DNA of 64,000 nucleotides from an uncultured Bacillota bacterium (GTDB lineage: Bacteria; Sysuimicrobiota; Sysuimicrobiia; Sysuimicrobiales; Segetimicrobiaceae), in NCBI GenBank assembly GCA_963804645.1, contig CAWDRG010000009.1, positions 648,314-712,313 of the forward strand, read 5' to 3'. How positions within the stretch are numbered: the first letter of the stretch is position 1; each line of letters opens with the position of its first letter. Both the position numbers and the translations under genes were made by a program. Positions 42,183 through 60,159 of the stretch are shown piece by piece. A model generated the notes under the pieces. That model worked only from the letters and a program-made list of their open reading frames with translations. It did no database searches and had not been told where the DNA came from.

Positions 42183-42192
42183 TGCGCTCGGC

Positions 42193-43617: not shown

Positions 43618-44141
43618 CGGGTCTCTCCCACTCCTTCGAGTGACGGTGCTCGGCCGGCCGCCTGCTCCTGCAATACCTGCTCGCGTATTCCCCGGAGCCG
43701 AACCAGCCGTTCCTGCAGTTCCTTGTGAAGCTTCGCCAGCCGCGCCGTGCGCTCGTCAACGATGCGCATCTGAGACTGTGCCAGCGCCATGGCCTGATCG
43801 AGCAGCCCGAGGCGCGTCGCCGGATCCGTGGCCTGCTGGTACGCCTCGCGGATTTCCGCGCGCACCGCGTCCGCGTGGAGCGTTTCCTTGATCTCAGCGA
43901 GTGAAATGCCGAGGAGCGACTGCAACTCCTTGATCCTCAGCAGCAGGGCGATCTCCGCCTCGGTGAAGAGGCGAAACCCGCCGGCGGTTCTCCCTGAGGG
44001 GGACAGCAGACCCACTTCTTCGTAGTAGCGAATCGCGCGCGGAGTCAAGCTCGTCCGGCGGACAACTTCTTCCATGCGGTAGTTCGCTTGGGGTCCGGTG
44101 GGATCTTGCTCCTCTGAGATGGGTGCCTGACCGTCCGTCAT
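43614..44141 (-). CDS. MerR-family transcriptional regulator
   Basis: MEEVVRRTSLTPRAIRYYEEVGLLSP is a MerR HTH, followed by a coiled-coil dimerisation helix. Overlaps the hlyD start (ATGA). Likely regulates the emrAB-like operon. Alternative start at 44075. Confidence 0.8.
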   Translation of the reverse strand: MTDGQAPISEEQDPTGPQANYRMEEVVRRTSLTPRAIRYYEEVGLLSPSGRTAGGFRLFTEAEIALLLRIKELQSLLGISLAEIKETLHADAVRAEIREAYQQATDPATRLGLLDQAMALAQSQMRIVDERTARLAKLHKELQERLVRLRGIREQVLQEQAAGRAPSLEGVGETR

Positions 44142-44632
44142 CCGCTCATTCTCCTACCCAAAGCTTAATCAAATAGCGCTTTAGGGATTATAACATACTC
44201 TTCCGTTAACGTGACATTGCCCAAATTACTTCCGTTGTTGCCGCCCGTTTTCGGGGCGCCGGGACCGTCGCCATCCCTTCCGTCACGTAAACGAGAGATT
44301 CTACTCCTGCTCGCCGCCTGCCTTGACTTGCCTAGAATGGTTCGACCTGCCCCCCGAGGCGGTGCTGCCTCGGAAGGCGCCTGGTGACGCGGGTCGAGGC
44401 CGGCACTCACGGGGTGATTCGTCCGTTGAAACTGGCATCGCTTCTTGCTATGCGCCGGCCGGAGCAATCCTGTTCCGGATGCCTATATGTATTCGTATTC
44501 GCCTTCGACGTATAATCGAACACCGGTTCGCGTGGCGAAGGCGGCCGTTGCGCATGCGCGCCTGCGGGTATAAGATTCTCGTTGCCGCCCAAGGCGGCAG
44601 CGCGTGGGGGGCATAGCTGGGGGGATCGCGTC

Positions 44633-45496
44633 GTGCGACCGTCTTGGAGGGGCTACGTCAGCTTCGGGCTCGTGACGATTCCCGTTAAACTGTACACGGC
44701 GACCGAACAGAAAGACGTTCGGTTCCGACTGCTGCACACCGTCTGTCATACGCCCATCAAGAATCAGCGCTTCTGTCCTCACTGCGACCGCGTGATCGAA
44801 TGGGCCGACGTCGTCCGCGGGTACGAGGCGAGCAAGGGTCGCTTCGTGCTCGTGACCGACGAGGAGCTGGAGCAGATTCCGATCGACACCAGCGGCAACG
44901 TGAATATCGCCGGGTTCGTCGAACTCCAGGACATCGACCCGATCTACTACGAGCGGTCCTACTACGTCGCGCCGGACGAGGGCGGAGCCAAGGCGTTTCT
45001 CCTGCTCGAGGAGGCGCTGCGCGAGGCGAACCGGGTGGCGATCGGCAAAGTGGTGATTCGGGAGAAAGAGCAGCTCGTGTCGCTTCGCCCGTATCAAAAG
45101 GCGATGGTGCTGAGCACGCTGTTCTATGCCGACGAGGTGCGGTCGCTGTCCGGTCTGGAAGAACTGCCGGTGGAGGCCACGGTGCATCCCAACGAGCGGA
45201 AGATGGCCGTGCAGCTCGTGGAGAATCTCGCGATGGAGTTCAATGTCGAGGAGTTCAAAGACGAGTACCGTGATGCCCTCATGGCGATGATCAGTGCGAA
45301 GGGTAAGGGCGAGGAAGTCGCCGGGCCGAAAGAGGCGCCCGCCCCGGGCAAGGTCGTCGACCTGATGGAGGCGCTCAAGCGAAGTGTCGAGATGGCGAAG
45401 GGCAGCCATCGGCGGCCGGCGGCCGACGGCAAGAGCGCCCGCGCCGCGGGCCAGCAGCGGCGGGCGGCGGGCGGCATGCACGAGCGTCCGCGATAG
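44633..45496 (+). CDS. ku: Ku protein (non-homologous end-joining DNA-end binding)
   Basis: WRGYVSFGLVTIPVKLYTATEQKDVRFRLLH is the canonical Ku beta-barrel N-terminus. The C-terminal tail is basic. GTG start, trimmed from the track start at 44582. No ligD gene in the window. Confidence 0.85.
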   Translation: MRPSWRGYVSFGLVTIPVKLYTATEQKDVRFRLLHTVCHTPIKNQRFCPHCDRVIEWADVVRGYEASKGRFVLVTDEELEQIPIDTSGNVNIAGFVELQDIDPIYYERSYYVAPDEGGAKAFLLLEEALREANRVAIGKVVIREKEQLVSLRPYQKAMVLSTLFYADEVRSLSGLEELPVEATVHPNERKMAVQLVENLAMEFNVEEFKDEYRDALMAMISAKGKGEEVAGPKEAPAPGKVVDLMEALKRSVEMAKGSHRRPAADGKSARAAGQQRRAAGGMHERPR

Positions 45497-45528
45497 CGAT
45501 CGTCCCCAAGCGCACGCGCGTGACGCGC

Positions 45529-45558
45529 CGAACGGCGGCCCGGAAGGGCCGCCGTTCG
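45529..45558. terminator. bidirectional stem-loop terminator (13-bp perfect stem, GGAA tetraloop)
   Basis: CGAACGGCGGCCC-ggaa-GGGCCGCCGTTCG between the convergent ku (+) and substrate-binding-protein (-) genes. Confidence 0.6.
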
Positions 45559-45586
45559 GACTATCGTCGGAACTGCGCCGGCGCGC

Positions 45587-47197
45587 TTACTTCCAGGTCG
45601 CGTAGATCGCGGCCCACTTCTCGTTTGGCGTCACGCTCACGCCCTGCAGATGGTTGGTCGCGACCATGTAGAAGTCCTGACTCCAGAGGAAGATCCACGG
45701 CGCGTCCTTCCAGATCATCTGCTGCGCTTCCTTATACATCGCCTCGCGCTTCGTTTGATCCGGGACCGTCTGGGCCTGCAGCAACAGGTTGTCGACGTCG
45801 GTGTCCTTGTAGAACGACGGCGCCAGCCCGGTGGGCGGCCACTGCCCCGAGTAGAACTGGCCGAACAGCTCGCCGTCGGCGTCCAGGTACTGCGTCGCCC
45901 ACCCGAGGATGAAGATCTGAAGCGGGCTCTGCGCCAGCGGAGTCACCATCCACTTCACGTACGTCGGCCAGTCGGAGGTCTGGACGTTCGCCTGGATCCC
46001 GACGTTGCTGAGCTGCGCCGCGACCGCCTGGGCGAACTGATAGTCCTGGATGTACCGCCCCGTGGGGGTCCGGAAGTCGAGCTGGAAGCCCTGGGGGTAG
46101 CCGGCCTCCGAGAGCAGCTTCTTCGCCAGCGTCGGGTTGAACGGCCACCCGCCCGCCTGCAGCTTGGTGTATCCAAACAGCGCCGGGGTCGTCGGCGACT
46201 CGAGCACGTGCGCGAGGCCGAACAGCACGCTGTGGATGATCGCATCCTTGTTGATCGCGTAGTTGAGGGCCTGGCGTACCCGGACGTCCTTCAGCGGTCC
46301 GTATTGGTTGTTGAGCCCGATGAAGACGTCGCGGTCGCTCGCTCCGGAGATCACCGTGAGCGTGTTGTCCTTGCGGAGCGTGGGAACGTCCGGGGCGGGC
46401 GGTTCGTATGCCATCTGGACGTCGCCCGCGCGCAGCATGGTCTCGCGCGTGCCGGCGTTCGGCACGACGCGGAAGATCACCGTGTCGAAATACGGCTTCT
46501 TCCCCCAATAGTTCGGGTTCTTGACGAGCGTGATGTGGTCGCCGTGCACCCACTCCTTGAACACGTAGGGACCCGTCCCGGCATCCGTCGGGCCGAGCAC
46601 GATCTTGTCGTTGCCGATCTTCTTGACCGCGGTCGGCGAGAGGATCATCCCCGGCCCCGCGGCCATCCGCTCGAGCAGCGTCGGACTGGTCTGCTTGAGG
46701 TGCAGCACCACCGTATACGGATCCGGGGTGTCGATCCGGGTGGCGTCGATGTCGGTGAAGTAATACCGGTTCGGATTGCGCACGCTGGTGTCGAGCCACC
46801 GCTGGACGTTGAACTTCACCGCGTCCGCGTTGAAGTCGGTGCCGTCCTGGAACTTGACGCCCTGCCGCAGTTTAAACGTGTAGGTCAGCCCGTCGGGGCT
46901 CACCGTCCACGACGTCGCGAGCTGCGGCGTGAGCTTCGTATACTGGGGCTGGCCCGGTTCCACGCCCGAGCGCTCGTCGTTCGGCCAGATGAGCGAGTCG
47001 AACATGTATTCCACCATGTTGGACACGGTGGTGGTCGTCTGCCCTTCGGGGTCGAGCGTGTCGGCGTCGATGCCGACGGCGATCGTCAGGGTGGTCGGCG
47101 CGGCGGCGAATCCTCCCCGGGGGATCACGAGGAGCACCACCGCCACGACGCAGGCCACCAGCAGCGCGACGACGGGACGTACGGCCGATCGGATCAT
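45587..47197 (-). CDS. ABC transporter substrate-binding protein, family 5 (DppA/OppA-like)
   Basis: Signal peptide MIRSAVRPVVALLVACVVAVVLLV, then TLTIAVGIDADTLDP and ...FNVQRWLDTSV.... 536 aa. Confidence 0.85.
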   Translation of the reverse strand: MIRSAVRPVVALLVACVVAVVLLVIPRGGFAAAPTTLTIAVGIDADTLDPEGQTTTTVSNMVEYMFDSLIWPNDERSGVEPGQPQYTKLTPQLATSWTVSPDGLTYTFKLRQGVKFQDGTDFNADAVKFNVQRWLDTSVRNPNRYYFTDIDATRIDTPDPYTVVLHLKQTSPTLLERMAAGPGMILSPTAVKKIGNDKIVLGPTDAGTGPYVFKEWVHGDHITLVKNPNYWGKKPYFDTVIFRVVPNAGTRETMLRAGDVQMAYEPPAPDVPTLRKDNTLTVISGASDRDVFIGLNNQYGPLKDVRVRQALNYAINKDAIIHSVLFGLAHVLESPTTPALFGYTKLQAGGWPFNPTLAKKLLSEAGYPQGFQLDFRTPTGRYIQDYQFAQAVAAQLSNVGIQANVQTSDWPTYVKWMVTPLAQSPLQIFILGWATQYLDADGELFGQFYSGQWPPTGLAPSFYKDTDVDNLLLQAQTVPDQTKREAMYKEAQQMIWKDAPWIFLWSQDFYMVATNHLQGVSVTPNEKWAAIYATWK

Positions 47198-47367
47198 GGC
47201 TCACATCCCTCCTTCTTGCGTATGAGGCTATGCGGCCGGAGCCGCCGATCTGGGCGCGGAGGGTCCCGCGCGACAGGGCTATCTACAGTACGCGCTGCCG
47301 GGGAGGAATTCCTTTGGACGAGGCTTGCGGACTAGGCAGACGACTGCCACCGAAGTAGAATATGCCC

Positions 47368-47460
47368 CGGAGGGGTGCGAGAGCTCGGCTGAATCGGGCG
47401 GTCTCGAAAACCGCTAGGCGGGCAACTGCCTCGGGGGTTCAAATCCCTCCCCCTCCGCCA
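47368..47460 (+). tRNA. tRNA-Ser (anticodon CGA), class II with long variable arm
   Basis: GGAGGGG/CCCCTCC 7-bp acceptor stem, D stem CGA/TCG, anticodon stem GCGGT/ACCGC with loop CU-CGA-AA, long variable arm, T arm GGGGG-TTCAAAT-CCCTC, discriminator G plus encoded CCA. Confidence 0.85.
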
Positions 47461-47654
47461 ACGACCCATGAGTGCCATGGGTCGGCGCACAGGCTTATCG
47501 TCCGAGCTGAAGCGCGTCCCGCTGGAGAAATTGCCGCCGTGTACTACATTGTACTGCGTTGTACCATGTACTTTAGACGACGGAAGAACCAACCCGTTTT
47601 ATTATCAGGTCCGCCGTGTTCGTCCAGCGGAGTGCGTCGATGACTTGATCCTGA

Positions 47655-48065
47655 CTACCGCGGTTGTACGTCGATCGGGGGCCCACTCACGTGCATCTGA
47701 TCGCGGATTCGGCCCGCAAACTCTGCCGCTCCGTAGCAGCGGAACTTGAACTCCGTGCCGTCGCGTAGCGCCACGGTCACGACGCGCGTGCCGATTCCGA
47801 AGCGATCAGTAACCGACGTAATGTCCGCCAGGGGTACGCGACGGCTCATATTGTCTTTGTGAACGAATCGGTTCATTGCATTCGGTCGGAAATCGAGACA
47901 ATCTGGCAAGAGATACATGGTGCCACCGACCCATAAGCCCCTATAGTTTGCCTTGAAAAATTTAAGAGCGATCTTTACTTCCGCGTCCATTGGAAATCCC
48001 AACTCAGCGGATTTGATGAGAGCGTTTACTATCTTTTTGGCAACAATGTTTGCTGGCTCCTCCAT
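47655..48065 (-). CDS. GRAM/PH-like domain protein (hypothetical), in AT-rich island
   Basis: MEEPANIVAKK... behind a strong GGAGGTGA RBS. The C-terminal RVPLADITSVTDRFGIGTRVVTVALRDGTEFKFRCYGAAEFAGRI matches the GRAM/bacterial-PH beta-sandwich pattern. Codon usage and local GC are clearly lower than the flanks. Confidence 0.5.
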   Translation of the reverse strand: MEEPANIVAKKIVNALIKSAELGFPMDAEVKIALKFFKANYRGLWVGGTMYLLPDCLDFRPNAMNRFVHKDNMSRRVPLADITSVTDRFGIGTRVVTVALRDGTEFKFRCYGAAEFAGRIRDQMHVSGPPIDVQPR

Positions 48066-48184
48066 GAATTGTTCACCTCCGTCATCTATGTTAGGCACAC
48101 CATGATTTGCAAGCAATAGGCGCGGTGGAGGACCGGCTCGCGCCCTTGACCATGGAACGTATGCTTGCCGTGATGAGCTGCCTC

Positions 48185-48212
48185 GCGGAGTTCACATCCT
48201 TCCCCTTCGCCA
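48185..48212 (+). repeat. degenerate direct repeat of the tRNA-Ser 3' end (T-arm plus acceptor), putative att remnant
   Basis: GCGGAGTTCACATCCTTCCCCTTCGCCA versus the tRNA 3' end GGGGGTTCAAATCCCTCCCCCTCCGCCA. Followed by the same CCCATG..CATGGG hairpin motif seen after the intact tRNA. Confidence 0.45.
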
Positions 48213-48288
48213 AGAACCCATGAAAGACATGGGTGCGCACGCAGCGCCTCTTGTCCGACTCCGATCGCTTCTCGCGCGAACACTCCGA

Positions 48289-48440
48289 CCATGGTAACCG
48301 CTTGTACTACTCCGTTTCGCTATGGCAGGCCGCCGCGCGGACTCGGACGGATGCCCATTTCGTGACGCGGACGTGATCTGGACCGGCATGGGGCGCGCGC
48401 CCGATATCCTGGTGGCTGTGGGGAGCGTATTCTTTGAATT
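48289..48440 (+). repeat. ~150-bp conserved repeat R, copy 1 (function unknown; element end, promoter or ncRNA)
   Basis: CCATGGTAACCGCTTGT...TATGGCAGGCCGCCGCGCGGACTCGGACGGATGCCC...GACGCGGACGTGATCTGGACCGGCATGGGGCGCGCGCCCGATATCCTGGTGGCTGTGGGGAGC is about 90% identical to 49792..49940. Ends just before the RBS of the DUF900-like gene. Confidence 0.5.
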
Positions 48441-48448
48441 GAGGAGAG

Positions 48449-49531
48449 ATGTCAAAACCTGCAGGGGGATGTGCCGTGTCGACTTACGTCACCGTCCCGA
48501 TCGACGAGAATGGCATCATTTCCGATTTATACCTCCCGTCAATTATCTCCGAGTCAACGCACGACCCGTTCCGATTTTCCGATGTGTTCGTCTACTCGCA
48601 CGGTTGGTGGACCAATGCCGCGCAGGCCATGACGGACTATAACCACTTCGTCGTGGATCTCACAAGATGTCTCCTGCAGATAGCTCCGGCGCCGCCGTCC
48701 GATCTCGCCCTCCCCCGGTCGTCATTTCCGATTGCGCTCCATTGGCCGTCTATGATTAGCGAGGACCCAGGTTCTCTTGCGAACGCTGCGGAACTCGCGA
48801 CCTTTTTCTCAATGGGGAAGCGCGCCGACGTTGTCGGCCAACATGGGGTATCATCGCTCGTGAGAATGCTCTACAACGACTGGAACCCGCCGACGTCGGA
48901 CATGAAGTTGCGCCTCAACTTGATCGGGCACAGCTTTGGCTGCCGTGTGGTATGTTCCGGGTTGGCCACGGCGCTCACGACGATTGCTCAGGAGCAGCGC
49001 CGACTTCCCCAGTCAATCCAGTTGAGAGTGGTACTGCTTGCGCCGGCCTTCAACAGCGATGAGCTCCAACATGACCAGGATTACGCTGCGCTCACCGAAC
49101 CGGAATTGGACCTGCGCATCCTGGCAACCCGTTCCGACGGGGACACATCGCTCTGCACGTGGTATCCGCGGGCCGAAGCGCTGAATTTCTTCGCAAAGGA
49201 GCCCGTGACGGCGTTGGGCGGCGCAGGTCCGAGCGCACAGACTCTTTCTGACTTTGCCTCAAGCGGTACCGGTATTTCGGTGGGCCCCGGGTTTACGTAT
49301 AAAGGGGTCGTCACGAACACCGAGCGCCTCGTCGTCGCAGATCTCAGCGCATTGCATGCCGCGAACCCCGATCATGTGACGAGCAAGTTCGCCGGCCATC
49401 ACTCCGACATTTACTACAACGAGATTTACGAGCTGATCGCGGGATTTCTGTTCACGCGTTATCCGTTGGGGGTCGCGCCGCCTCCGGAATCACGCACCCC
49501 TGTTTTAGAATCGCCGGTGACCGCTCGGTAA
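48449..49531 (+). CDS. alpha/beta-hydrolase-fold serine hydrolase, DUF900-like (putative esterase/lipase)
   Basis: VFVYSHGWWTN, IALHWPSM and the nucleophile elbow LIGHSFGCRV (GxSxG) follow the DUF900 order. The start may be the GTG at 48476. Sits in island 2 between tRNA-Ser fragment repeats. Confidence 0.65.
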   Translation: MSKPAGGCAVSTYVTVPIDENGIISDLYLPSIISESTHDPFRFSDVFVYSHGWWTNAAQAMTDYNHFVVDLTRCLLQIAPAPPSDLALPRSSFPIALHWPSMISEDPGSLANAAELATFFSMGKRADVVGQHGVSSLVRMLYNDWNPPTSDMKLRLNLIGHSFGCRVVCSGLATALTTIAQEQRRLPQSIQLRVVLLAPAFNSDELQHDQDYAALTEPELDLRILATRSDGDTSLCTWYPRAEALNFFAKEPVTALGGAGPSAQTLSDFASSGTGISVGPGFTYKGVVTNTERLVVADLSALHAANPDHVTSKFAGHHSDIYYNEIYELIAGFLFTRYPLGVAPPPESRTPVLESPVTAR

Positions 49532-49660
49532 GCGGGCGCGCCGACAAGCCCCGAGATGCTCGGCGAACGGGACGGCTCGAAGGTGTAAATTCAATCGCCG
49601 GGCCAGAATGTCGAGGACGTTCCGCGAGGTCAATCAAACTGGCACAGCTATGGCGGGCGC

Positions 49661-49715
49661 AAAACTGCTAGGAGGGTAACTGCCTCCGGGGGTTCAAATT
49701 CCTCCCCTTCCGCCA
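49661..49715 (+). repeat. direct repeat of the tRNA-Ser 3' portion (anticodon loop to CCA, 55 bp), putative att site
   Basis: AAAACTGCTAGGAGGGTAACTGCCTCCGGGGGTTCAAATTCCTCCCCTTCCGCCA versus the tRNA AAAACCGCTAGGCGGGCAACTGCCTCGGGGGTTCAAATCCCTCCCCCTCCGCCA. There is no matching 5' half, so it is not a tRNA gene. Confidence 0.7.
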
Positions 49716-49791
49716 ATGCCCCATCAACGACATGGGTCGGCACACAAGCGTGCCCGTTTGATTCGAACCGCGTCTTACCCGAGAACTGCGG

Positions 49792-49940
49792 CCATGGTAA
49801 CCGCTTGTCCTGCTTCGCTTCGTTATGGCAGGCCGCCGCGCGGACTCGGACGGATGCCCCACTTCCTGACGCGGACGTGATCTGGAACGGCATGGGGCGC
49901 GCGCCTGATACCCTGGCGGCTGTGGGGAGCTATTATTTAA
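49792..49940 (+). repeat. ~150-bp conserved repeat R, copy 2
   Basis: See copy 1. Same position relative to the tRNA fragment: about 75 bp downstream of the CCA. Confidence 0.5.
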
Positions 49941-50221
49941 CTTTTGCACGAAATCGATCAGTAGGTGAAAGGTACAGCCGCGGGACGAGAGCCGGAAAAC
50001 GTCGAGGGGCGCATCGCAGTAGGCTTTGGGGAGGTGAACCTACAATGGGCGAGCCGGGTGGAAGCTCAGGGGCACCTGATTACGTGATCCGGCCGCCTGC
50101 TGCATTTCGGCCGGAATGTCCATCAAACTATTGGTGCGACGGAACCGTTAGATCTAACGCCTGCTGCGGGTAGTGGACTGCTCCTCTCGGTCGGTGCCCG
50201 CAGGGTGTGGGTCCGGGGAAT

Positions 50222-50659
50222 ATGTTCCTCTCGATCGGTGCCCTGCTTGTTTTGAGTGCGGGCATTGGGCTCGCCCTCTCGATTCTCATTGCGGTGATCT
50301 TCCGCAAGTATGCGACGCCTGAGCATGCCGTCGCTGACAGCTTCAGTGAGTTTCACACACGCCTGAGCCAGCTGCAAGGTCAGTTCTCGAGCGATTGCGC
50401 CAATCCGGTGGTGCCAAGCGGTGGCTCAGCCGACGCGGCCCGGAGAGAGGTAGGCGAACACCTGCATAGCATCAACAAAGAGCTTCGTCGGAACGGGCTG
50501 CCGTGGGTAAGGGGGACAGGCTATATTAGCCTCTGGGAACGCCTGCACCGTGCCGAAGAAGCCCTCATCGAATTTCAGCCTTCGGGGGCGGTCGTCGCGG
50601 GGGCGATCCTGACGCGCAGCGGCTTCGCGGTTCAAAAATTCCACGCTGCGAAGACGTGA
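50222..50659 (+). CDS. hypothetical membrane-anchored protein
   Basis: MFLSIGALLVLSAGIGLALSILIAVIF forms an N-terminal TM helix followed by a soluble domain. No family recognised. Lies in the degraded island. Confidence 0.3.
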   Translation: MFLSIGALLVLSAGIGLALSILIAVIFRKYATPEHAVADSFSEFHTRLSQLQGQFSSDCANPVVPSGGSADAARREVGEHLHSINKELRRNGLPWVRGTGYISLWERLHRAEEALIEFQPSGAVVAGAILTRSGFAVQKFHAAKT

Positions 50660-50779
50660 TCAAGCAACTGGGGCAGGCTGTCGAGGCCATTGATCCGTCC
50701 GCTCGGAAATACCTTTTTGATCCTCCCACAGCGGCTCTGCCACTAGTCATCAAGAGCCAGCGCAGGCTGGACGACGCAA

Positions 50780-51446
50780 TTGTCGGTGTCACGTGGTTTA
50801 GAAGCTCTCGCGGCGAGCGGGGGCACGCCCCCGTACCATTGGACGTCCGACGACGCGACGCTGCCGCAGTGGGCAATGCTGAGCGATACGGGCGTGGTGG
50901 GCGGCACGCCGCCACGGCAGACGGTGGGGCCATGCGGATTTACTGCTCGCGTGACGGATAGCGCCAGCGTGACGGCCACCAAAGATTTTGCTCTAACTGT
51001 CCGCGAGCTGGAGAATGCGACGCTGCTCGATGCGACGTTGGAAGGGCGTACAAGGGAGTCGGGAATCAGCAAGCGGCGTCCGCATACACGAGTGGTCTGA
51101 TCAAAACTCCTTGCAAGGCGGAGTGGGACTTGCGCGAGAGGGCGTGCTGACCGGCGCGCCGGCGACTGCCGGGATGCTTCGCGTTTCGGCGCGGGTCGAA
51201 AGCGAAGGGCAAGAGATCACCGAAGATGTCACATTAGTTGTGAAGACTCCAGCGGATCGGATTGGTGACAGTGACGCAGATCGAGGCACATTGGCGCGGG
51301 GTGTGTTGCGCACTGTTCGCCTCGTCATCGATGAGTTCGCGACCAAAACTGGAACGCGATCGTGCTCGCCCGCAATCGCCTCGCGGAACTCATGTTTCTC
51401 ACGGGACTGCTTGGGTACGCGTTACTCGCGATTGCCATCGGGGTGA
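50780..51446 (+). pseudogene. fragments of a cell-surface protein with putative-Ig (He_PIG / dystroglycan-type cadherin-like) repeats, in two different frames
   Basis: Frame 1 (50780..51100): GGTPPYHWTSDDATLPQWAMLSDTGVVGGTPPRQTVGPCGFTARVTDSASVTATKDFALTV. Frame 2 (51015..51446): LPxG-like ...GVLTGAPATAGMLRVSARVESEGQEITEDVTLVV. Two consecutive repeats of the same domain type in different frames indicate frameshifting. Confidence 0.4.
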
Positions 51447-52478
51447 AGGCGCAACGGAACTCGAAATTGGCTGCTGCAGCGGTTTTCTATCTGGCTGGTG
51501 CGACAACGGGGCTGCTCAGCCGACTGTACAGTGAGTCCCAAGGATAACGCGGTCGTCGGGAGCATTGATCGGACTATGGTCTTGTGCCGATGCGGGTCTG
51601 ACATGCTGGTAGTGTCCGGTTTGGCGGCAATTTTCGGTGTGGTGTTGGTGGCGATGCTGCCGCAAGCTGTGAGTGCGTTCACGAGCGCGGTTGGGGCGGT
51701 GGTAACGCGACCCAGCATGCCGTCGTTGGCAGATATTCTCGATCTCGAAGGGCACCTCGCTTACATCATTGTGGCGGCGGTTTTTGGCCTGACTCCAGGC
51801 TGTTCTTTAACCGGCTCAGGGCCTGGCCGACACTTTTCAAGAAGGATTTGAAATCCACCAGCGCCCATCAGAACGAGGCGTCGATGCGGCAGGGGCGTCG
51901 GTGTGGGGCGCCAGGGTTCAACGGCGGCCCTTCACCATCGCGGAATAGATTACGCGTTGATCCTTTCCGAGTGTAGGATGTGATTATATCGTTCAGTATG
52001 CCCCCCCACATAATATGGGATTTTGAATGCTCTGCCAAAAAAAGGATAGTTTTGAATTTTTCCGTCGAAGAAATGTTCGATCACCAAGCGGTAAGCGCTC
52101 GGTGCCTACCGCCATGTGCCGACGGTCCACACTGACACCCGCCGGACTGCGGCGGATGACGGTACTCGCTGCGCGGCTGTGCTTCCGGATCGAGGGAACG
52201 GGGGGCAGTCAAATGCGGCGTGGCTGGATGCTGACGGTGCTGATCCTCGGTTGCGTGTAAGGTGTCGACGGCACCATCGCTGGCTGAAATCACCGGCATG
52301 CTCCGCCTGATTAAAGCGTCCACGTTGGCGGATACTTTGGAAGAACAGGGATTTGATGGTCTGAAGATGAAGCCGCAGCGCGGCGGCGCTGCCATCTCGC
52401 GGCGAGGACAGGTGCAGCGTCGCAAGCGGGCGGCAGACAGTTGACGACGTAGTCAATGCAACCCTCCGCGAGGGGGGC

Positions 52479-53268
52479 GTGGAAATGGGGACGCGGCTGC
52501 AAGGGAAGGTGGCCCTTATCACCCGGGCATCTCAGGGAATGGGACGCACCGCGGCGATCTGTTCGCGAAGAAGGGGCGCGTGTCGCGATCGTCGACGTGG
52601 ACGAGGCGCAGGGCGTCGAGGTCGCCGGCATCATCACCTCCGCCGGCGGGGAGGCGCTGTTGGTCCGCGCGGACGTCAGCGACGCCGGGCAGGCCCGCGC
52701 GGCCGCCGATGCGACCGTCGCCCGGTTCGGCCGCCTCGACGTGCTCTTCAACAACGCGGCCGTCCGCGCGAACGGCGCGCTCCACGAAATGTCCGAGGAA
52801 GACTGGGATCGCGTCGTCGCCGTCAACCTCCGAGGCGTGTTCCTAATGTCCAAGTTCGCCATCCCGTATATGATGAAGCAGGGAGGCGGCTCGATCATCA
52901 ACATGTCGTCGGCTGTAGCGTTCGTCGCCATGGAGCGGCGGGCGGCGTATATTGCGACGAAAGGCGCCGTGCTGGCGCTCACGCGCGCGATGGCGACGGA
53001 CTACGCGGACCACCACATCCCCGTGAACGCGTTGTGCCCCGGGACCGTGGCGACACCGCGTCTGGTCGCGTCCCTCCGGCCGCCGGGCGCCGGGGCGCAG
53101 GCAACATACTGCCGGTCATCTACACGTCAGGGGACGCTGGCCCGGCCGGATGAACTTGAGGCCGCGGCGCTGTTTCTGGCTTCCGACGACTCCAGCTTCA
53201 TGACGGGCGCCCCGCTGAACGTCGACGGCGGGTTCATCGCTGGCCGGCGGGCGTGGCCGGCCCAATGA
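52479..53268 (+). pseudogene. SDR-family oxidoreductase disrupted by two 1-nt deletions
   Basis: N-terminus MEMGTRLQGKVALITRASQGMGRTAAI is in frame 52479. The rest (EEGARVAIVDVD...NNAA...YIATKGAV...LASDDSSFMTGAPLNVDGG) is in frame 52456. The intervening 15 nt read LFAK in the third frame, implying two single-base deletions within GCGGCGATCTGTTCGCGAAGAAGGGG. Confidence 0.6.
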
Positions 53269-53638
53269 CCCGCAGACCACCGCGCCGCACCCACGGCGCG
53301 GTCGGGAAAGAGGCGTGAGAGCTGTGGCAACGGTGATCGAGGCTCCGGCGCAGGCACCTACCGCATCGCTGGCCCGGTTCATCGCCGGCCTCGGGGACAG
53401 CCGCTGCACGCATATCGATGAGGCCGCGTGCTGGGCGCCGTCCCCGAAAGCTCGCGGCCAGGAAGCCTGGGCGAGCTCGTCCCTGCGGAAGGCGCGGACG
53501 ACGGATTCGAGCGGTGTGACGCCGCTCTTGAAGAGTCCGCCTCCTCCTAGAGGCCCTTCGCTCCTCCGGCATCAGGTTATGCCGTCACGTGCGGCTTACC
53601 GTCCACTACCTCCCACTACCCGTCTGTTACAAGACGCT

Positions 53639-54275
53639 CTAGCCGTTCCAGCGTGAGGTCGCACAAGAATTAACAACCAGCGTCGCGGAGGAGAAATCAT
53701 TGGTCCGTGTGTGCGCGGTTGGAACGGCGACCACTGGCATTCCAGCATCTCGGGCAGCTAGCACGCCTTTTTCCGCGTCCTCCAGCACCACACATCTGGC
53801 AGGCTCCGCCCCGAGATGTTGAACGGTATGAAGAAACACATCGGGATAGGGTTTGGCGCGCGGGACACTTTCTCTGGTCGCAATCACGTCAAACACACTT
53901 GCAGCACCGATCTTGCGAAGCACGGGGTCGACATCCACCCGAAACGCAGACGTGGCCAGCGCGAGGCGCACGTGTGACCGCAGGGCGTCAATCAGTTCGA
54001 GCGCACACGGCATCGGTTGCAGTTCGGCCTCCAGCAGCGTCGAATAGTAAATCAGCTTGCGTCCTCTCAGCACCTCTGGGTCGCGTCGGACGCCACGGGC
54101 GCGTAGGTAACTCGATGCCACCGGCGCTCGGATCGACAACGCATATCATCAACCGAGCGGCATGCCAATTTCTGCGAGCGTGTCTAGCCAAGACCGGTAA
54201 CGCAGGCCTTCCGTGTCAACGAGAAGTCCGTCAAGGTCGAAAATAACGGCCTGCAGCGCTGCCGCGGATGGCATG
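53639..54275 (-). pseudogene. HAD-superfamily hydrolase (subfamily IA) interrupted by two consecutive in-frame TGA codons
   Basis: Minus strand: MPSAAALQAVIFDLDGLLVDTEGLRYRSWLDTLAEIGMPLG-TGA-TGA-YALSIRAPVASSYL...KPYPDVFLHTVQHLGAEPARCVVLEDAEKGVLAARDAGMPVVAV. The HAD motif I DxD (FDLDG) and motifs III/IV are in the same frame, separated only by TGATGA. Confidence 0.55.
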
Positions 54276-54279
54276 ATCG

Positions 54280-55021
54280 TTAGCGGTACCCGCCGTAGAT
54301 CGCGTGTCCGGCATACATCCAGAAACAGTCAACGATCTGGAATCCGACTTCGCGTAGCCAGTCCAACTGGTCGACGAGGCGAGACGGCTGATCCACCGGA
54401 TCCGGCACATCCAGCCGGTAGTGGTTCCAGCGATCATCTCCAAACCCATCGCGCGCGCGCGCATCGCCGAACCTGCGCAGGCTCCGCTCTTGGACCGCCT
54501 CGTCCCACTGCGAAGCAAAGAGACGCGCCACATGAGGCGTCGCCGCCTCGACGAGATCAGCGACGAGGAGCGCGCCCCCGGGCTCCAAGCGCGCGGCCAA
54601 ATCCGCGAACAGACGCCGTTTCTCAGGCCCAGGGATATGGTGAATCGCAAGCGAGGAGATCACACACCGCAACGATACCGGAAGAGTGGCCCGCCAATCG
54701 TCGGTACTGTGAGCAACATCTGCGTGCTGCACACGTCGCCGAAGATCCGAGCAACCGCCGCTCTCGCTCCAGCATCACGTCGGAACCGTCGAACGCGAGC
54801 ACCTGGCACCGGGGAAATCGCTCGAGCATCTCCTTAGCAAACGTCCCATCGCCCGCAGCGAGCTCGACGATCGTGAACGTTTCGTCAGCGTCAGCCGGGA
54901 TCAGGTCGAGAAGAACGCGCCGCTGCTCTTCGCGTGCAGGAACGTACCCGTCGCCGATCTCGGCGAATCGCTCAGAGTCGGCTTCAGTCCAGCGCGACGG
55001 ATCGCCGGGATTGCGTAACAT
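54280..55021 (-). pseudogene. class I SAM-dependent methyltransferase split by a frameshift
   Basis: N-terminal part (MLRNPGDPSRWTE...ETFTIVELAAGDGTFAKEMLERFPRCQVLAFDGSDVMLERERRLLG) is in frame 54623..55345. The C-terminal part (...VISSLAIHHIPGPEKRRLFADLAARLEPGGALLVADLV...) is in frame 54280..54732. They overlap about 110 nt. Confidence 0.55.
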
Positions 55022-55365
55022 GATCTCGGCAAAATTCGCGATTGTCAGTGATTGCTCCCGCTCTACCAACGGTAGAGGGTGCCACACAAGTGTTTGCTGA
55101 AATGATACATGCCGTTCGCTGAACGTTCGCTGGCGTGCCCAGAGAACGGGACGCCATGAAAGGAGGTGGGTTTTCGGAACGAGGCGATCTCGTGCAAGCT
55201 CGTGTTCGCCTACCGGTGGAAGTCCGGTCCGGGTAAGCGCCAGGGCGCCCGGTAGCAGGCTCCTGGTGCGAGGTGGAAACGCCTGGCACTGAAGCGGAGC
55301 GTCGAAGGCCTGAAGTCGAGGAAGCGACCGCTCAGCCCGTAACATGACGTGAATCCTGCCGCCTC

Positions 55366-56174
55366 GTGAAGTTAACCCCGCAAGGGGACCAGAGGGAGCC
55401 GAGTCGGGTAGTTCGCGACGAAGGCCATGGAAAGCGTGAAGCGCTTGGAGATGCAGCGCTGAAGGACCCTCCGGGGTATGGGGAGCGGGATGAGCGGAAG
55501 GTGGACACGGGAACTGGGGACACCCGCCCCCCGGGTGACGGACCGTTTCCGGCCGTTGTACTTCTCCCCGGCTGTGACGGGAGCTTCGACACGATCAACG
55601 AACACTACTTGGCGCTCTTTCAGCAACAAGGGTACGTCGTACTCGCGCTTGATGTGCACGGGTCGAGACACGTCTGCCCAAACTTGTCGGCGCTTCCTTC
55701 CTTTACCGTAGCGAAAGACGCGATCGGCGCGCACGTCTATCTGCGTTCGCTCCCCTATGTTGACGCGAACCGTATCGCGGTCGTGGGATGGAGCCTGGGA
55801 GGCGAAGCCGCCTCGTCCGCGGGCAACAAGGGATCGATCGTCGGCGCGCTCACTGAGTGGTGCCGGCTGCCTTCGCGTTCTATCCGGATTGCGAGTATCT
55901 TCTGCATTACGCGAAAGATGCTCGCGTCCCCACGCTCATCCTGATTGGGCAGGCGGACGACTGGGATTCGCCTAGCGAGTGCCAGGACGCCGCGCAGGCC
56001 TCGCAGCAGAACGGGCAGCCGGTCACGATCCAGACGTTCCCCGGAGCGCCTCACGCGTTCGACGTGGCTCCGAAACCGATTGTGTATCTGGGGCACAAGG
56101 AGGCGTACGATGCGGCGGCAGCAGCAGTGGCCCAGAGCGCGCTGCTGAGTTTTCTCGGGGACAATTTCAAATAG
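55366..56174 (+). pseudogene. dienelactone-hydrolase-family alpha/beta hydrolase split by a frameshift
   Basis: PAVVLLPGCDG...GYVVLALD...IAVVGWSLGGEAAS (nucleophile elbow) is in frame 55366..55944. The remainder (AAFAFYPDCEY...VPTLILIGQADDWDSP...FPGAPHAFD) is in frame 55857..56174. Confidence 0.55.
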
Positions 56175-56212
56175 CACGGCTATTTCACCACCCAGGTCCT
56201 AGCGGCGGCGGT

Positions 56213-56258
56213 GGGGCCGGCAACTGCCCCGGGGGTTCAAATCCATCACCCTCCGCCA
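56213..56258 (+). repeat. direct repeat of the tRNA-Ser 3' portion (variable arm to CCA, 46 bp), distal att remnant
   Basis: GGCCGGCAACTGCCCCGGGGGTTCAAATCCATCACCCTCCGCCA versus the tRNA GGCGGGCAACTGCCTCGGGGGTTCAAATCCCTCCCCCTCCGCCA. Confidence 0.7.
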
Positions 56259-57054
56259 ATGATCCAGGAACCACGTGGGCTGCGCACGCCGTGTCCGACT
56301 CGAACCGCACCCCAGAATATTAGCCGCCGTGTGATCTCGGGTGAGAATGCAGTGGCTGGCTTCTTTGGGGGGTGTTCGTCGTGCACCGATTCGAACTACA
56401 GGTTCTGCGGCGCCCAACGCGCAATGACGTCGCGGACCTGGACGATCAGATTGCGGCGTTCAACTGCGACGCAACCAACGCCCCGGGACGACCTGGAACT
56501 CGGCATCTTCGTCCGCGGCGGCGATGGCAGCCTCAATGTCGACGGCGAACCTACTTCGTGAAAATCGCGTTCCCATCAACGACCGTCACGAGCCGCCACC
56601 CCTGGGCGCTGAGTGCATTGAGATTGGATGCTGCGGCTGCGCACCTGGATGCGGCGAAATTTAATTGAGCGTTCACGTTGCTCGCCCGGCCCTGGGTGCG
56701 GAGGCTGCTTGGACACCCGTGATTTGACCCAGGGTGAACACGGTGTATTGAATGGACGTCGCGGCGTACGAGGCCGAGTGAGGCGTTCCGATGAGGAACC
56801 CAGCCCGAAGACGGCAAGAACAAATCCTAACAGTGTGCTCCGCACCAAATCACCCCCGGCCTCTGGACGGCACTCGCTTCGGACGGCTCTGGGCGCCCCT
56901 CGCTCGTGCCGTTTCGTCGGGACGATGTTGTTGAGGCCTTACATTGTGGGCGCAACTCTTAATCGTAATAATTGAGTCCACGCGCAGGGACCGGCTGCAG
57001 ACACCGCAAATAAGCGGTTGAAACGAACACACAATGTGCAAAGAGGTGTGGATC

Positions 57055-57393
57055 ATGCGATTTCTTGTGACCGCGGAATACGTCGAAGTGGGCGCGTTGC
57101 TGCCGCCGGAGGCGATCGGCCCGCTGGCGCAGCACGTTATTCTCCCGAGTCTCGAAATGTTGGCGAAGTGGGAGCAGGACGGCAAGATCCGTGGCGGCGT
57201 GCATGCCGGAGAGCGATCCGGCGCCTTCATTGTCGACGCCGCGTCCAACGAGGAAGTTGGAACGCTCCTCGCGAGCCTGCCATTTTGGGGGCTGGTGAAG
57301 TGGGACGTGACCCCGCTGCAGTCCTGGGCGTCCACCGTCGAGCGAGACCGAGGCGCCTTTCAAAGGGCCGCGTCCGGCGTCCCCAAGCGCTGA
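57055..57393 (+). CDS. muconolactone Delta-isomerase-family (MIase-like) small protein
   Basis: MRFLVTAEYVEVGALLPPEAIGPLAQHVILPSLEMLAKWEQDGKIRGGVHAGERSGAFIVDAASNEEVGTLLASLPFWGLVKWDVTPL aligns with the about 96-aa MIase pattern (MLF.V.M.V..P....., W...G......FDV.S..EL...L..LPL.P). AAGAGGTG RBS. Confidence 0.6.
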   Translation: MRFLVTAEYVEVGALLPPEAIGPLAQHVILPSLEMLAKWEQDGKIRGGVHAGERSGAFIVDAASNEEVGTLLASLPFWGLVKWDVTPLQSWASTVERDRGAFQRAASGVPKR

Positions 57394-57640
57394 CTCGGCT
57401 GTGTGAGATGAGCTCCGACCCCGTGCCGGGGCGCCCGTTGGCCCCCGGCGCGGGGGGCAGCGTGGCCAATAGGCCGGCAGGTCCCCTCGACGAACCCGTT
57501 CGGTTCCGCGGACTTTGAGAATCATGAGATCTTCATAGACTCTTGGCGAGTTCTTCTCCCGGCTGCGGGACCCTCAGAAGTGTCAGAACCTTGCGGCCCG
57601 CGACGGCACGGGCACGCAGGGTAGATCCGAGCCTCTGGGG

Positions 57641-57937
57641 TTGATGGTCGTGCTGCGGGCACTGGCAAACGGTCGGGTGGCTCGGTTCGTGGTCTTGAGT
57701 GCGGCGTTTGTCGCGTTGAGCGGACTTCCGGCGTATGCCCAATCGGGCGGACACTACCGGCACAACCAGAGCAGCGAGTCGTGCCAGGCCGGCCGCTGGC
57801 AGCAGGCCAACACGTGTCGGGGTCAGCCTCAGCAGTATCGGGGGCCCGAGTATCAGGCGCCCGCGCAGCCTCAGCCGGATCGGGGCGGGCCCGCGCAGTC
57901 TCCCGCGCGTATTCCAGACGATGGAAGCAGCAAGTAG
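57641..57937 (+). CDS. small secreted Gln/Pro-rich protein (hypothetical)
   Basis: N-terminal signal peptide ending ...LSGLPAYA/QSGG. Mature part is about 65 aa with two Cys and repeated QPQ/PQP. No homolog recognised. Confidence 0.35.
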   Translation: MMVVLRALANGRVARFVVLSAAFVALSGLPAYAQSGGHYRHNQSSESCQAGRWQQANTCRGQPQQYRGPEYQAPAQPQPDRGGPAQSPARIPDDGSSK

Positions 57938-58844
57938 GCGCGCGAACAGGCCTACGGCTCACGCTGAATGAGACGCGGTTTCGCGGACTCCCTCCCGGGC
58001 CGGGTACCCTGGAGGGAGTCCGTTTCCGTCCGCGCCGCGGCGGCGGGACCGATGCTCGGAGTATCGCCCCAGGAGAACACGAGCTGGTCGGTCCCGGCGA
58101 CGTGATAAATCGTCACGAGACGGCCGCCCACGCAGCGCTCGCCCGCCTTCGTCATCGCGCACTTCTCGCTCGCAGGGCCCAAGAACTTCAGCAGTGCTGC
58201 TGACACTTCCCGTATTGATTCCAGAGCGCCGAATTCGAGAGACACTGCGGCTGCTGTGGAAATGCCGCGGCCACCGCATTGTAAACGGCATAACTGGGCG
58301 GCTCGCGGCGAGGACCCCGAACGAGCGCGTCCCCAAGGGGTCCGCCCGCAAAGCGGCACGAAGAAAGTCATCACGAGCGAGCGCATGTTCATCCACTTCC
58401 GCAGGGTCGCCGCGCCGTGTTCGACGCAGGGTGCCGCCGGCCAGCCCGGCCTTGATTCGCGCCCGGTCCGGCCTTTCGTGCGGGGCGGGTTTGGTCCTTC
58501 ACTCTAAAACGTCGCGCCGCACGCGGCGACGGGCCCGAATGCACCGGCTCCTGGCGCCGACGCCCGCGGCACCGTGTCCCTTCGTGTTTGCTGAGTCGCC
58601 GGACTTGTCGATCGAACTGGCCGCGGGGTCCCGCCAGTCCGAATGGCGGCCGATCACGCGTGGTGGTTCAATCGTCAGGCCGGCAGTTCGAGGGGTTCCA
58701 CGGTGCGGGGCGAAACATGGGGAATCTTGCGGGATTGGAGCGCCGCGCGGCGGCAAGGTGTGCGCCGTTCGTCTCCCCGCCGGCGGAGGGGATCCCGACG
58801 ACGACGATCCCCTCCGGATCGGCTCATTCTATGATGGAGCGTGT

Positions 58845-59423
58845 ATGCCGGAACGTGCGTTCCGCATCTTGGGCATCCCGGGCAGCCTGAGGCGGTTTTC
58901 GTGGAATCGCGGGCTGCTCGTGGCGGCGCGAGAGGGCGCTCCCTCAGGAATCGAAATCCACATCGCCGATCTCTCCCCGATTCCACTGTTCAACGAGGAT
59001 GTGGAGGCCGCCGGGGCGCCGCCGGCGGTCGAGGCGTTTCGGCAGGAGATCCGCGCGGCCGATGCGCTGCTGATCGCGGTGCCGGAATACAACTATTCAA
59101 TGCCGGGCGTGCTCAAGAATGCGATCGACTGGGCGGCCCGGCCTTCGCGAGAGAGTGCGCTGCGCCGTAAACCCGCGGCGCTCATGGGGGCGGGCGGCGC
59201 GAGCGGCACGGTGCGCTCCCAGCTCGCTCTTCGACAGGTGTTCGTGTTTACCGAGACCTACGTGCTGCCGAAACCGGAGCTGTACGTGCGGAACGCCGCC
59301 GCCAGTTTCGACGCCGAGGGCCGGTTGACCGACGCCCACGTGCGCGACCAACTGCCGCCGCTGCTGGCCGCGCTCGTCAAGTGGACGCGGGCGGTCGCCC
59401 ACATGAGCGACGACGCGCGCTGA
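58845..59423 (+). CDS. NADPH-dependent FMN reductase (FMN_red family, SsuE/ArsH/YieF-like)
   Basis: MPERAFRILGIPGSLRRFSWNRGLL...LLIAVPEYNYSMPGVLKNAIDW matches the flavodoxin-like FMN_red N-terminus and PEYN motif. GGAG sits 5 nt upstream. The track ORF (58194..59423) carries a long non-coding-looking leader. Confidence 0.8.
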   Translation: MPERAFRILGIPGSLRRFSWNRGLLVAAREGAPSGIEIHIADLSPIPLFNEDVEAAGAPPAVEAFRQEIRAADALLIAVPEYNYSMPGVLKNAIDWAARPSRESALRRKPAALMGAGGASGTVRSQLALRQVFVFTETYVLPKPELYVRNAAASFDAEGRLTDAHVRDQLPPLLAALVKWTRAVAHMSDDAR

Positions 59424-59433
59424 CCCTGTAGGA

Positions 59434-59461
59434 GCGCCGCGGTCCCGCCGTGGCGCGGCGC
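59434..59461. terminator. bidirectional stem-loop between convergent genes
   Basis: GCGCCGCG-(11 nt)-CGCGGCGC lies between the FMN reductase stop (59423) and the cupin stop (59489). Confidence 0.45.
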
Positions 59462-59488
59462 CGCGGAGATACGGCGAGCGGCGTCGCG

Positions 59489-59953
59489 CTATCCCGGCGG
59501 CGGGGCGGGTGTCAGCCCGTGACGGCGCATGATCTCGACCATCTTTGCCCGATCGGGCGGACCCCCGGCCGCGGAGACCATCACCGCCGTCATCTCGCGA
59601 AAGTACTCGGGGCCGAGCACGCCGGGACTGATCACGCAGAGCTGCTTGACGTCCTCGGAGCCGCGATTGTCGAATCGATGGACCGCGCCGCGGGGGATGC
59701 ACAGCGACTGTCCCGGCGCGACGTCAAACGGTGCGCCGTCGACCGTCCAGGTCAAGACGCCGGTGAGGCCATAGACCGTTTCTTCGTACCGGTCATGACT
59801 GTGCGCCGGCGCGGTCAACCGCTCTCCCGCCGGAACGGTCAATTCGAAGAGCGCCGCGCTGCCGTTTGAGTCGGCGCCGGTGACCAAGAAGCGAATCCCC
59901 AACGGGCCGGCCTGGATCATTTCATCCGAGGCATTCACCCGGAGCGATGTCAT
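59489..59953 (-). CDS. cupin-domain protein
   Basis: MTSLRVNASDEMIQAGPLGIRFLVTG...ERLTAPAHSHDRYEETVYGLTGVLTWTVDGAPFDVAPGQSLCIPRGAVHRFDN is a two-motif cupin. Trimmed from the track start at 60061. Confidence 0.7.
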   Translation of the reverse strand: MTSLRVNASDEMIQAGPLGIRFLVTGADSNGSAALFELTVPAGERLTAPAHSHDRYEETVYGLTGVLTWTVDGAPFDVAPGQSLCIPRGAVHRFDNRGSEDVKQLCVISPGVLGPEYFREMTAVMVSAAGGPPDRAKMVEIMRRHGLTPAPPPG

Positions 59954-60149: not shown

Positions 60150-60159
60150 CAAAATCAAA

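Follow-up and report, generated by a model that had tools for sequence, protein, structure and literature searches.

The 64,000-nt stretch of contig CAWDRG010000009.1 from an uncultured soil lineage (hereafter, the window) contains, directly downstream of its tRNA-Ser(CGA) gene, a tandem array of islets separated by displaced fragments of the same tRNA. The array probably arose by repeated integration of related elements at the tRNA 3' end, followed by their decay and accretion into remnants resembling cis-mobilizable elements (CIMEs). Serial integration at this site had been proposed in an earlier note made from the sequence alone, and the proposal is supported by near-empty sites and junction polymorphism in relatives, by a second array in the sister species represented by L177, and by a tyrosine integrase gene found at the same tRNA in L160 (L-numbers denote loci or contigs of relatives, mostly metagenomic).

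A search of the entire window with ARAGORN confirmed a single tRNA gene, the intact tRNA-Ser(CGA) at 47369-47460 of the forward strand (47368-47460 in the earlier note), which is the integration target and has a sigma-70-like promoter, identified by promoter scan, just upstream at 47333-47361. With the intact gene numbered as copy 1, three 3' fragments of it follow on the same strand: copy 2 at 48178-48212 (tRNA positions 58-92, identity 30/34), copy 3 at 49652-49715 (positions 29-92, identity 56/63), and copy 4 at 56215-56258 (positions 49-92, identity 40/44). Repeat finding, pattern searches with shuffled controls, blastn, and pairwise alignment all agreed on these fragments, and shuffled controls gave a chance expectation of 0 for a 25-nt pattern of the tRNA 3' end. 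The three direct repeats reported previously are thus real, and their positions were close to ours, but their lengths are 35, 64, and 44 nt rather than 28, 55, and 46, and not every repeat ends in TCCGCCA, copy 2 ending in TTCGCCA. Copy 3 begins in the anticodon stem and has lost one anticodon base. No further tRNA copy was detected in the window by sensitive blastn and nhmmer profile searches. The fragments delimit islet 1 (47461-48177, 717 bp), islet 2 (48213-49651), and islet 3 (49716-56214, 6.5 kb), so that the variable DNA lies directly 3' of the tRNA with a repeat of the tRNA 3' end at its far boundary; copy 2 is both the attR site of islet 1 and the core of the attL site of islet 2. In tRNA-linked integration, it is the displaced 3' fragment of the tRNA that constitutes attR, and this fragment typically starts at the anticodon stem or loop or further 3'. 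The base composition of the zone also differs from that of the flanks, as in genomic islands: the GC content is 0.50-0.56 in islet 1, which had been described as markedly AT-rich, and about 0.56-0.63 in most of the 47.4-57.2 kb region, compared with about 0.65-0.70 in the flanks, the exception inside the array being the segment at 52.4-53.5 kb around a short-chain dehydrogenase (SDR) gene, with GC of about 0.70.

All three fragments lie in direct orientation, are truncated only at the 5' end, and always retain the CCA-proximal end. A locus of decayed tandem tRNA duplicates should instead contain full-length or randomly truncated copies and duplicated flanks; the fragments here are never full-length and never 3'-truncated, and the cargo between them is unrelated from islet to islet. 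Nor do the repeats look like a product of metagenome assembly. The window is probably part of a long-read metagenome-assembled genome (MAG), and two contigs of one ENA assembly, L176 and L082, differ from it by many small indels, as might be expected of an artefact, but the same junctions were recovered in independent assemblies: the JGI short-read contigs L165, L155, and L175, the ENA contigs L082, L176, L177, and L181, and the NCBI locus L001. Duplication or artefact is therefore a highly improbable source of the array.

Sequence similarity runs past the CCA end of the tRNA at every copy, and a common module follows all four tRNA ends. It comprises, in order, the palindrome CCCAT-N7-ATGGG, a GTCCGA..CCGCG block (in the form GTCCGAnTCGAACCGCGTC), CCCGAGAA, and direct repeats of TGTAC or GGTAACC; the palindrome is 17 nt long and starts 4 nt after the CCA, and the short direct repeats lie 75-100 nt downstream. 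In the window the palindrome pattern occurs only at 47465, 48217, and 49720, with 0.02 occurrences expected by chance. The claim that one and the same palindrome follows three of the four ends held for the sites, but after copy 3 one arm contains a mismatch (CCCATC...CATGGG). Module 1 (47461-47580, forward strand), which resembles an attL arm, has the palindrome CCCATGAGTGCCATGGG at 47465-47481, then GTCCGAG..GCGCGTC, GGAGAA, and four TGTAC repeats at 47540-47572 with spacings of 10, 10, and 7 nt. Module 2 (48213-48430, forward strand) has its palindrome at 48217-48233 and GGTAACC with TGTACTAC near 48293-48310, and module 3 (49716-49930, forward strand) contains the imperfect palindrome at 49720-49736, TCGAACCGCGTCTTACCCGAGAA, and GGTAACC. 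Both carry TGTACTAC direct repeats beside GGTAACC, and they have about 215 nt in common, with 83-92% identity in gap-free blocks and one block of about 140 nt in module 2 being nearly identical to module 3. Module 4 (56259 to approximately 56330) is weak and retains a degenerate palindrome, TCCAGGAACCACGTGGG, followed by GTCCGACTCGAACCGC. In the 100 nt that follow the tRNA end, the junction copies are 64-73% identical, with a mean of 61% and a maximum of 70% for random pairs. The module was also found in L001, L155, L176, L177 (four copies), L181, and L082. In a profile search of 183 loci with nhmmer, using the tRNA end plus module, full-length matches were confined to this clade, and all of them adjoined the 3' end of tRNA-Ser or a fragment of it.

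The module is not a gene, and it shows no evident RNA structure. Folding of module 3 on both strands was no better than that of shuffled sequences (z = 0.75 and 0.40), Rfam gave no match beyond the tRNA itself, and modules 2 and 3 differ by a 1-nt indel with no conserved open reading frame (ORF). BLAST of the junctions against phage and plasmid collections matched the tRNA part alone (tRNA-Ser genes of Caulobacter phages and one Acetobacter plasmid), and scans of viral contigs and metagenomes for the tRNA end plus TCGAACCGC gave no match. In further viral scans, the tRNA 3' end was found at 58 loci and TGTACTAC repeats in 23 chance matches of low GC content, none of them with the module. The layout of the module, a core beside the tRNA end followed by phased direct repeats, suggests the attL arm of a tyrosine-integrase element, in which the direct repeats would be putative arm-type integrase-binding sites and the palindrome 4 nt after the CCA a candidate core site for the crossover. 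Because the module is common to the copies, it points to one related element family rather than to the different integrases (core sizes) that the earlier note had offered, besides progressive erosion, as a reason for the differing repeat lengths. In L155 the first 11 nt after the CCA match copy 1 and the remainder matches copy 2 or copy 3 of L176, but this does not settle the crossover position, as other junction alleles start alike.

The length of these junctions also bears on a different mechanism, RecA-dependent single crossover of the Campbell type, in which the tRNA 3' end and the sequence downstream of it would serve as portable homology and islets would be lost by recombination between the repeats. 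The similarity extends 100-270 nt beyond the tRNA, far above a typical att core; over approximately its first 100 nt, the copy-3 module of L176 is nearer to module 2 than to module 3 of the window, which suggests exchange between copies; and an integrase is absent. However, junctions that barely exceed random similarity over 100 nt, with few long perfect stretches, make a poor substrate for homologous recombination. Moreover, the 5' truncation points vary, falling in the anticodon stem in copy 3 and in the region of the variable arm in copies 2 and 4, which is the classic pattern of integrase sublocations, and in relatives this tRNA is used by an element that has an integrase gene. We consider it unlikely that RecA-dependent crossover produced the array.

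Comparison with relatives showed the sequence downstream of this tRNA to be hypervariable. A metagenome scan for the tRNA-Ser(CGA) of this lineage returned 34 loci, and the sequence after the tRNA differs in almost every sub-lineage, which makes this site a hotspot. Several loci are nearly empty. In L154 a 97%-identical tRNA with the same 3' half is followed by about 150 nt and then by the ortholog of window 60158-62322, whereas L162 contains a gene for a family-5 solute-binding protein (SBP), the tRNA, 1.6 kb of sequence, and then the ortholog of window 60158 onward. The spacing between the tRNA and the 60158 ortholog is 1.8 kb in L146 and L170 and 3.7 kb in L151; in all these loci homology to the window resumes at 60156-60158. 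Near-empty sites, which had been put forward as a check, thus exist in L154 and L162, but the flank reached beyond their tRNA is the 60158 ortholog and not one at 57.0 kb. The right flank in fact begins at approximately 57.51 kb when close relatives are compared, and distant relatives place it at 60.16 kb. In L003, L144, L148, L150, L159, L167, L169, and L174 a conserved, putatively DinB-like gene directly follows the tRNA, with aligned starts. The SBP gene, tRNA-Ser, a variable region (12.7 kb in the window), and a cobalamin riboswitch with a TonB-dependent receptor gene thus form a deeply conserved frame.

Among close relatives, presence or absence of islets differs at the junctions in L155, L175, L177, L181, and L001, with some breakpoints located off the repeats. 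L165, from an independent JGI sample, corresponds to window 40774-48271 with 99.4% identity, contains islet 1, and ends inside module 2, and L082 begins at the base after the tRNA and carries islets 1 and 2 at 99.7% identity. L155 is 99.2% identical in the region from the SBP gene to the tRNA, but its intact tRNA is joined directly to module 2 (90.7%), islet 1 being absent. L001 (97% identical, with an identical SBP protein) contains a different sequence after a module-like start. In L175 the gene of the DUF900-type hydrolase from islet 2 (96%) is followed by a spacer of its own, a 12-nt tRNA end, and homology to window 57510-60229, islets 3 and 4 being absent. L176 corresponds to window 48218-58856, including copies 3 and 4, and is 94.7% identical over 10.8 kb.

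The sister species represented by L177, with 86-88% core-gene identity to the window, possesses its own array with three tRNA fragments and partly different islets. It consists of the tRNA, a homolog of islet 1, a 25-nt fragment, a 1.8-kb islet with a Ymh-family gene, a 54-nt fragment, an islet with an MIase-like gene, a 43-nt fragment, and insertion sequence (IS) elements. The module, with TGTACTAC repeats, is present at three of the four junctions, whereas after the third fragment only a palindrome-like start is left. L181 (about 87-88%) has the tRNA with the module, an SCO4226-like gene, the islet-1 gene, and then the flank from 57515, its islet 1 lacking the left junction module. The alignment to L177 that spans the SBP and Ku genes, at about 88% identity, also takes in islet 1 and copy 2; because their divergence is at the core level, they predate the split of the window and L177 species. 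The array is therefore old, and islet 1 is ancient and not recent.

Such variation could also be read as the activity of an integron-like cassette platform built on a tRNA, in which mini-islets, often of a single gene, would be inserted, excised, and reordered by a recombinase encoded elsewhere. Each would carry an attP-like module made of the tRNA-Ser 3' end, the palindrome, and TGTAC repeats spaced by roughly one turn of the helix, and the platform as a whole would be a functional analogue of an integron. Islets 1, 2, and 4 are indeed single-gene units of 0.7-1.5 kb, and their order varies, being GRAM/DUF900/III/MIase in the window, GRAM/Ymh/MIase in L177, and SCO4226/GRAM in L181 (GRAM standing for the islet-1 gene). 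The conserved module is confined to the junctions, islet 1 is precisely missing from L155, and no array has its own integrase. On the other hand, no candidate recombinase was seen, the core-level divergence of islet 1 indicates that it was inherited vertically and not exchanged recently, islet 3 is a pseudogene tract of 6.5 kb comprising several genes, and some breakpoints lie away from the junctions. There was no evidence of circular forms, and the junction copies are degenerate, copy 2 most of all. The locus is quite unlikely to be an active platform of this kind, which, if real, would be a tRNA-based counterpart to integrons. Strictly defined integrons also differ in that they have a tyrosine recombinase and structured attC sites of 55-140 nt, whereas the separators here are tRNA fragments with a 17-nt palindrome.

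No recombinase gene was found in the array. A six-frame Pfam search of 47461-57000 at E <= 0.05 revealed no integrase, recombinase, transposase, excisionase-type domain, or reverse transcriptase, in agreement with the earlier note, which had listed no integrase, excisionase, or transposase in the islands. The elements therefore lack a recombinase of their own, which a tRNA-targeting element would be expected to have. The ORFs in the 56.3-60.2 kb region encode no site-specific recombinase, and when all window ORFs were searched by phmmer with three queries (the L160 integrase, a group II reverse transcriptase, and an IS110 transposase), nothing matched at E <= 1. An integrase gene does occur at the same tRNA in relatives. 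L160, L156, and L158 share the 3' half of this tRNA, and the sequence that immediately follows it is identical in all three. L160 encodes a 390-aa tyrosine integrase (PF00589 at 7.7e-17, with an N-terminal SAM-like domain; translated and confirmed with Pfam), and a matching integrase ORF was seen in L156. The L160 ORF reads towards the tRNA and ends about 110 nt after it, with two TTTTCCTAACA direct repeats in between. This is the anatomy expected of an intact member at this att site, but its arm is different from that of the window.

Taken together, these data are consistent with a model in which the 3' end of tRNA-Ser(CGA), located between the SBP gene and the riboswitch/TonB-receptor operon, has served as the attachment site for related integrative elements. 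Each integration would have rebuilt the tRNA and moved the previous 3' end, with everything behind it, downstream. Read from the tRNA, the resulting array would consist of islets 1 to 4, each followed by a tRNA fragment (eroded in the case of islet 4), and then of older variable genes and the riboswitch, each junction retaining a tRNA-derived core and the adjacent arm of the element. Recombinase genes and most of the cargo would later have been deleted or degraded, leaving integrase-less remnants of 0.7-6.5 kb, and strains would now differ through loss, replacement, and reshuffling of whole islets at the junctions, carried out either by a recombinase encoded elsewhere or by recombination between the repeated junctions. 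We infer from the module layout that a tyrosine integrase made the module-bearing junctions, and the order of the integration events is likewise part of the model.

Several observations weigh against this model. First, no exact crossover core can be defined, because the copies are 67-90% identical, and beyond the opposite end of the fragments, the expected place of a P arm, inspection by eye alone noticed no conserved sequence. Second, neither the seven related arrays and array fragments nor the window contain an integrase that could act on these junctions, and the arm of the L160 element is unrelated to the window module, so that L160 belongs to a different element family. Third, some breakpoints do not coincide with the repeats: L175 diverges right after the stop codon of the DUF900 gene and not at a tRNA fragment, and the isochorismatase segment of L082 has no right-hand tRNA fragment. 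Fourth, given the core-level divergence of islet 1, the present polymorphism may reflect losses and not integrations. Finally, the frameshifts in islet 3 could partly be errors of long-read assembly.

The type of system is already known, being tandem accretion of decayed CIME-like islands, and the locus is a fresh example of it. Integrase-bearing islands and prophages linked to tRNA genes, the subject of the work of Williams in 2002 and of the Islander and TIGER surveys, reportedly prefer particular positions within the tRNA. The window differs from them in lacking the defining integrase; the L160-type element is a true member of this class but has unrelated arm repeats. A close parallel is provided by CIMEs, which have lost the genes for integration and transfer but kept attL and attR, and for which a route from integration through decay to a CIME and then to accretion by further integration has been described (PMC5704250, section 2.3). 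Such elements are exemplified by those related to ICESt1 in Streptococcus thermophilus (Pavlovic et al., 2004; Bellanger et al., 2011, summarised in PMC5704250). The window islets are similar in having no recombinase, tRNA-derived repeats at both ends of islets 1-3, and an arm module on the left of each. They differ in that an integrase-bearing partner, either an integrative and conjugative element (ICE) or an integrative and mobilizable element (IME), was not found in the window, L176, L177, L155, L181, L082, or L175; moreover, apart from islet 3 they are much smaller, single-gene units of 0.7-1.5 kb, in an uncultured soil lineage, and are likened to CIMEs by sequence.

The ssrA islands of Dehalococcoides form a very similar array, in which several islands stand in tandem downstream of a single small-RNA gene and direct repeats of its 3' end delimit each of them, with strain-specific sets, some of them lacking an integration module and proposed to be cis-mobilizable (PMC3146451). 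Further similarities are the extra conservation around the repeats and the older, fixed variable genes past the last repeat (PMC3146451). In Dehalococcoides, however, the target is a tmRNA gene, the serine recombinase DsiB is encoded in 16 islands, and the repeats are a uniform 20 bp (PMC3146451), whereas in the window the target is tRNA-Ser(CGA), the repeats are degenerate and 12-64 nt long, and no recombinase is present. Integrons resemble the array in having mostly single-gene units, imperfect repeats with a small palindrome, and strain-variable combinations. Unlike integrons, the window contains no intI or attI, the array is headed by a functional tRNA gene, with SBP, Ku, and MerR genes upstream, and the repeat is a tRNA 3' end plus arm, standing before a conserved 100-215 nt leader, and not an attC site.

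As it stands, the locus represents ordinary biology, well documented in other systems. It nevertheless provides a clean multi-genome example of the evolution of a tRNA hotspot, with accretion, recombinase loss, deletional decay of cargo, and reshuffling of small islets, and the tRNA fragments together with the junction module are practical markers with which the boundaries of islands can be set in MAGs of the clade. In several assemblies, from short as well as long reads, contigs break precisely at these repeats. The first base of L082 is the one that follows the tRNA, L165 stops within module 2, and L001 runs on for about 310 nt past the tRNA; since these three independent assemblies break at the tRNA or a module or within approximately 300 nt of one, the repeated junctions evidently fragment metagenome assemblies.

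As for the cargo, islet 1 encodes a 136-aa protein (47655-48065, reverse strand) of a rare family, 10 homologs having been found in a set of 5.8 billion proteins. It had been described as GRAM/PH-like, which was not confirmed: the protein has no Pfam or NCBIfam match, and its AlphaFold model has a mean confidence (pLDDT) of 42.5, too low for a fold search, the order of strands followed by a C-terminal helix being compatible with a PH/GRAM domain yet no proof of it. Distant homologs (P0125 and P0126) reside in ordinary chromosomal neighbourhoods that are uninformative, while a 78%-identical homolog adjoins a 93-aa Phage_integrase fragment in L178, L179, and L180, which belong to another lineage. 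Islet 2 carries the 360-aa DUF900-type alpha/beta hydrolase (48449-49531, forward strand; PF05990, E = 1.1e-4), as previously suggested; its homologs are labelled DUF900, the nearest having 96% and 80% identity and the others at most 55%.

Islet 3 had been described as a run of disrupted genes, and this is largely so, but its SDR gene (52456-53268, forward strand) is intact. The remaining contents are a He_PIG fragment (50780-51100, forward strand), a HAD hydrolase gene with an in-frame double stop (approximately 53639-54246, reverse strand), a truncated methyltransferase gene (54623-55345, reverse strand), a group II intron fragment (55210-55347, forward strand), and a frameshifted dienelactone hydrolase (DLH) gene (55366-56174, forward strand). 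In L176 the pattern is reversed, with the He_PIG, HAD, methyltransferase, and DLH genes intact and the DUF900 and SDR genes broken. Over 49.5-58.9 kb, which is mostly islet 3, the window lacks 188 nt relative to L176, mostly in gaps of 1-2 nt, and it is here that the window genes are disrupted; in islet 2 it is L176 that lacks 15 nt, and there its DUF900 gene is disrupted. Such a strong asymmetry of the indels fits deletional decay of genes that are no longer maintained; alternatively, they may be errors of long-read assembly.

The group II fragment matches the full 138-nt D1-D4-4 model (RF02003, 90.9 bits), overlaps the 5' end of the methyltransferase gene on the opposite strand, and lies just upstream of the DLH gene; domains V/VI were not found, nor was a reverse transcriptase gene nearby. 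L176 aligns over this region without large gaps. An intact group II reverse transcriptase/maturase gene is located about 1.7 kb from the same tRNA in L171, from another lineage. Between window 49938-58858 and L082:2366-3774 only short collinear patches were found, one of which (41/42 nt, window 54697-54738) lies in L082 inside an intact isochorismatase gene but in the window on the strand opposite to the methyltransferase ORF. The last 350 nt of L082 are, as judged by eye, nearly identical to the independent short-read contig L175, and the patchiness may be either true mosaic recombination or a consensus chimera, between which the analysis could not tell.

IS110-family genes occur a few hundred nucleotides past a tRNA-fragment junction in L155 (847-2082 of the oriented copy) and in L177 (L177:3645-4802). 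Their transposases are unrelated proteins, however, and a link of IS110 to the junctions was rejected as it looks like a coincidence. The L155 element is inserted exactly before the ribosome-binding site of the DUF900 gene, and L177 has IS481-like and Mu-like transposase genes beyond its last tRNA fragment.

The segment from 56259 to about 57510, with an MIase-like gene (57034-57393, forward strand), is probably a fourth islet whose right repeat has been eroded in the window. This is suggested by the region at about 57484-57515, which matches a junction still holding a tRNA fragment in L177 and L175. In L177 a 43-nt fragment stands right after the MIase-like gene (homolog of window 57043-57479), and in L175 a 12-nt tRNA end, CCCCCTCCGCCA, lies about 47 nt before window homology resumes at about 57510-57515. 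In the window itself, blastn and the nhmmer profile found no extra degenerate tRNA fragments or modules at 56.3-60.2 kb, the sole candidate being a doubtful remnant, CCCCTCGACGAACCC, near 57484-57498. The next segment (57515-60157), containing an FMN-reductase domain gene (ORF 58194-59423, forward strand) and a cupin gene (59489-60061, reverse strand), is common to the close relatives L175 and L181 and absent at this site in distant ones, and it possibly represents an earlier portion of the variable zone that has become fixed.

The conserved left flank includes the SBP gene (45587-47197, reverse strand) and a Ku-domain protein gene (44582-45496, forward strand), preceded by a MerR-family regulator gene (43614-44141, reverse strand); the order MerR/Ku/SBP is kept in L177 and L181. 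The conserved right flank contains the cobalamin riboswitch (60161-60373, forward strand; RF00174, 94.7 bits) and the TonB-dependent receptor gene (Plug and beta-barrel domains; 60420-62330, forward strand), followed by a gene for a TonB C-terminal-domain protein (62350-63228). Homology to the distant relatives restarts exactly at the 5' end of the riboswitch. The presence of an outer-membrane-type receptor is worth mentioning, as the relatives are MAGs labelled 'bacterium' or 'Bacillati bacterium ANGP1'.

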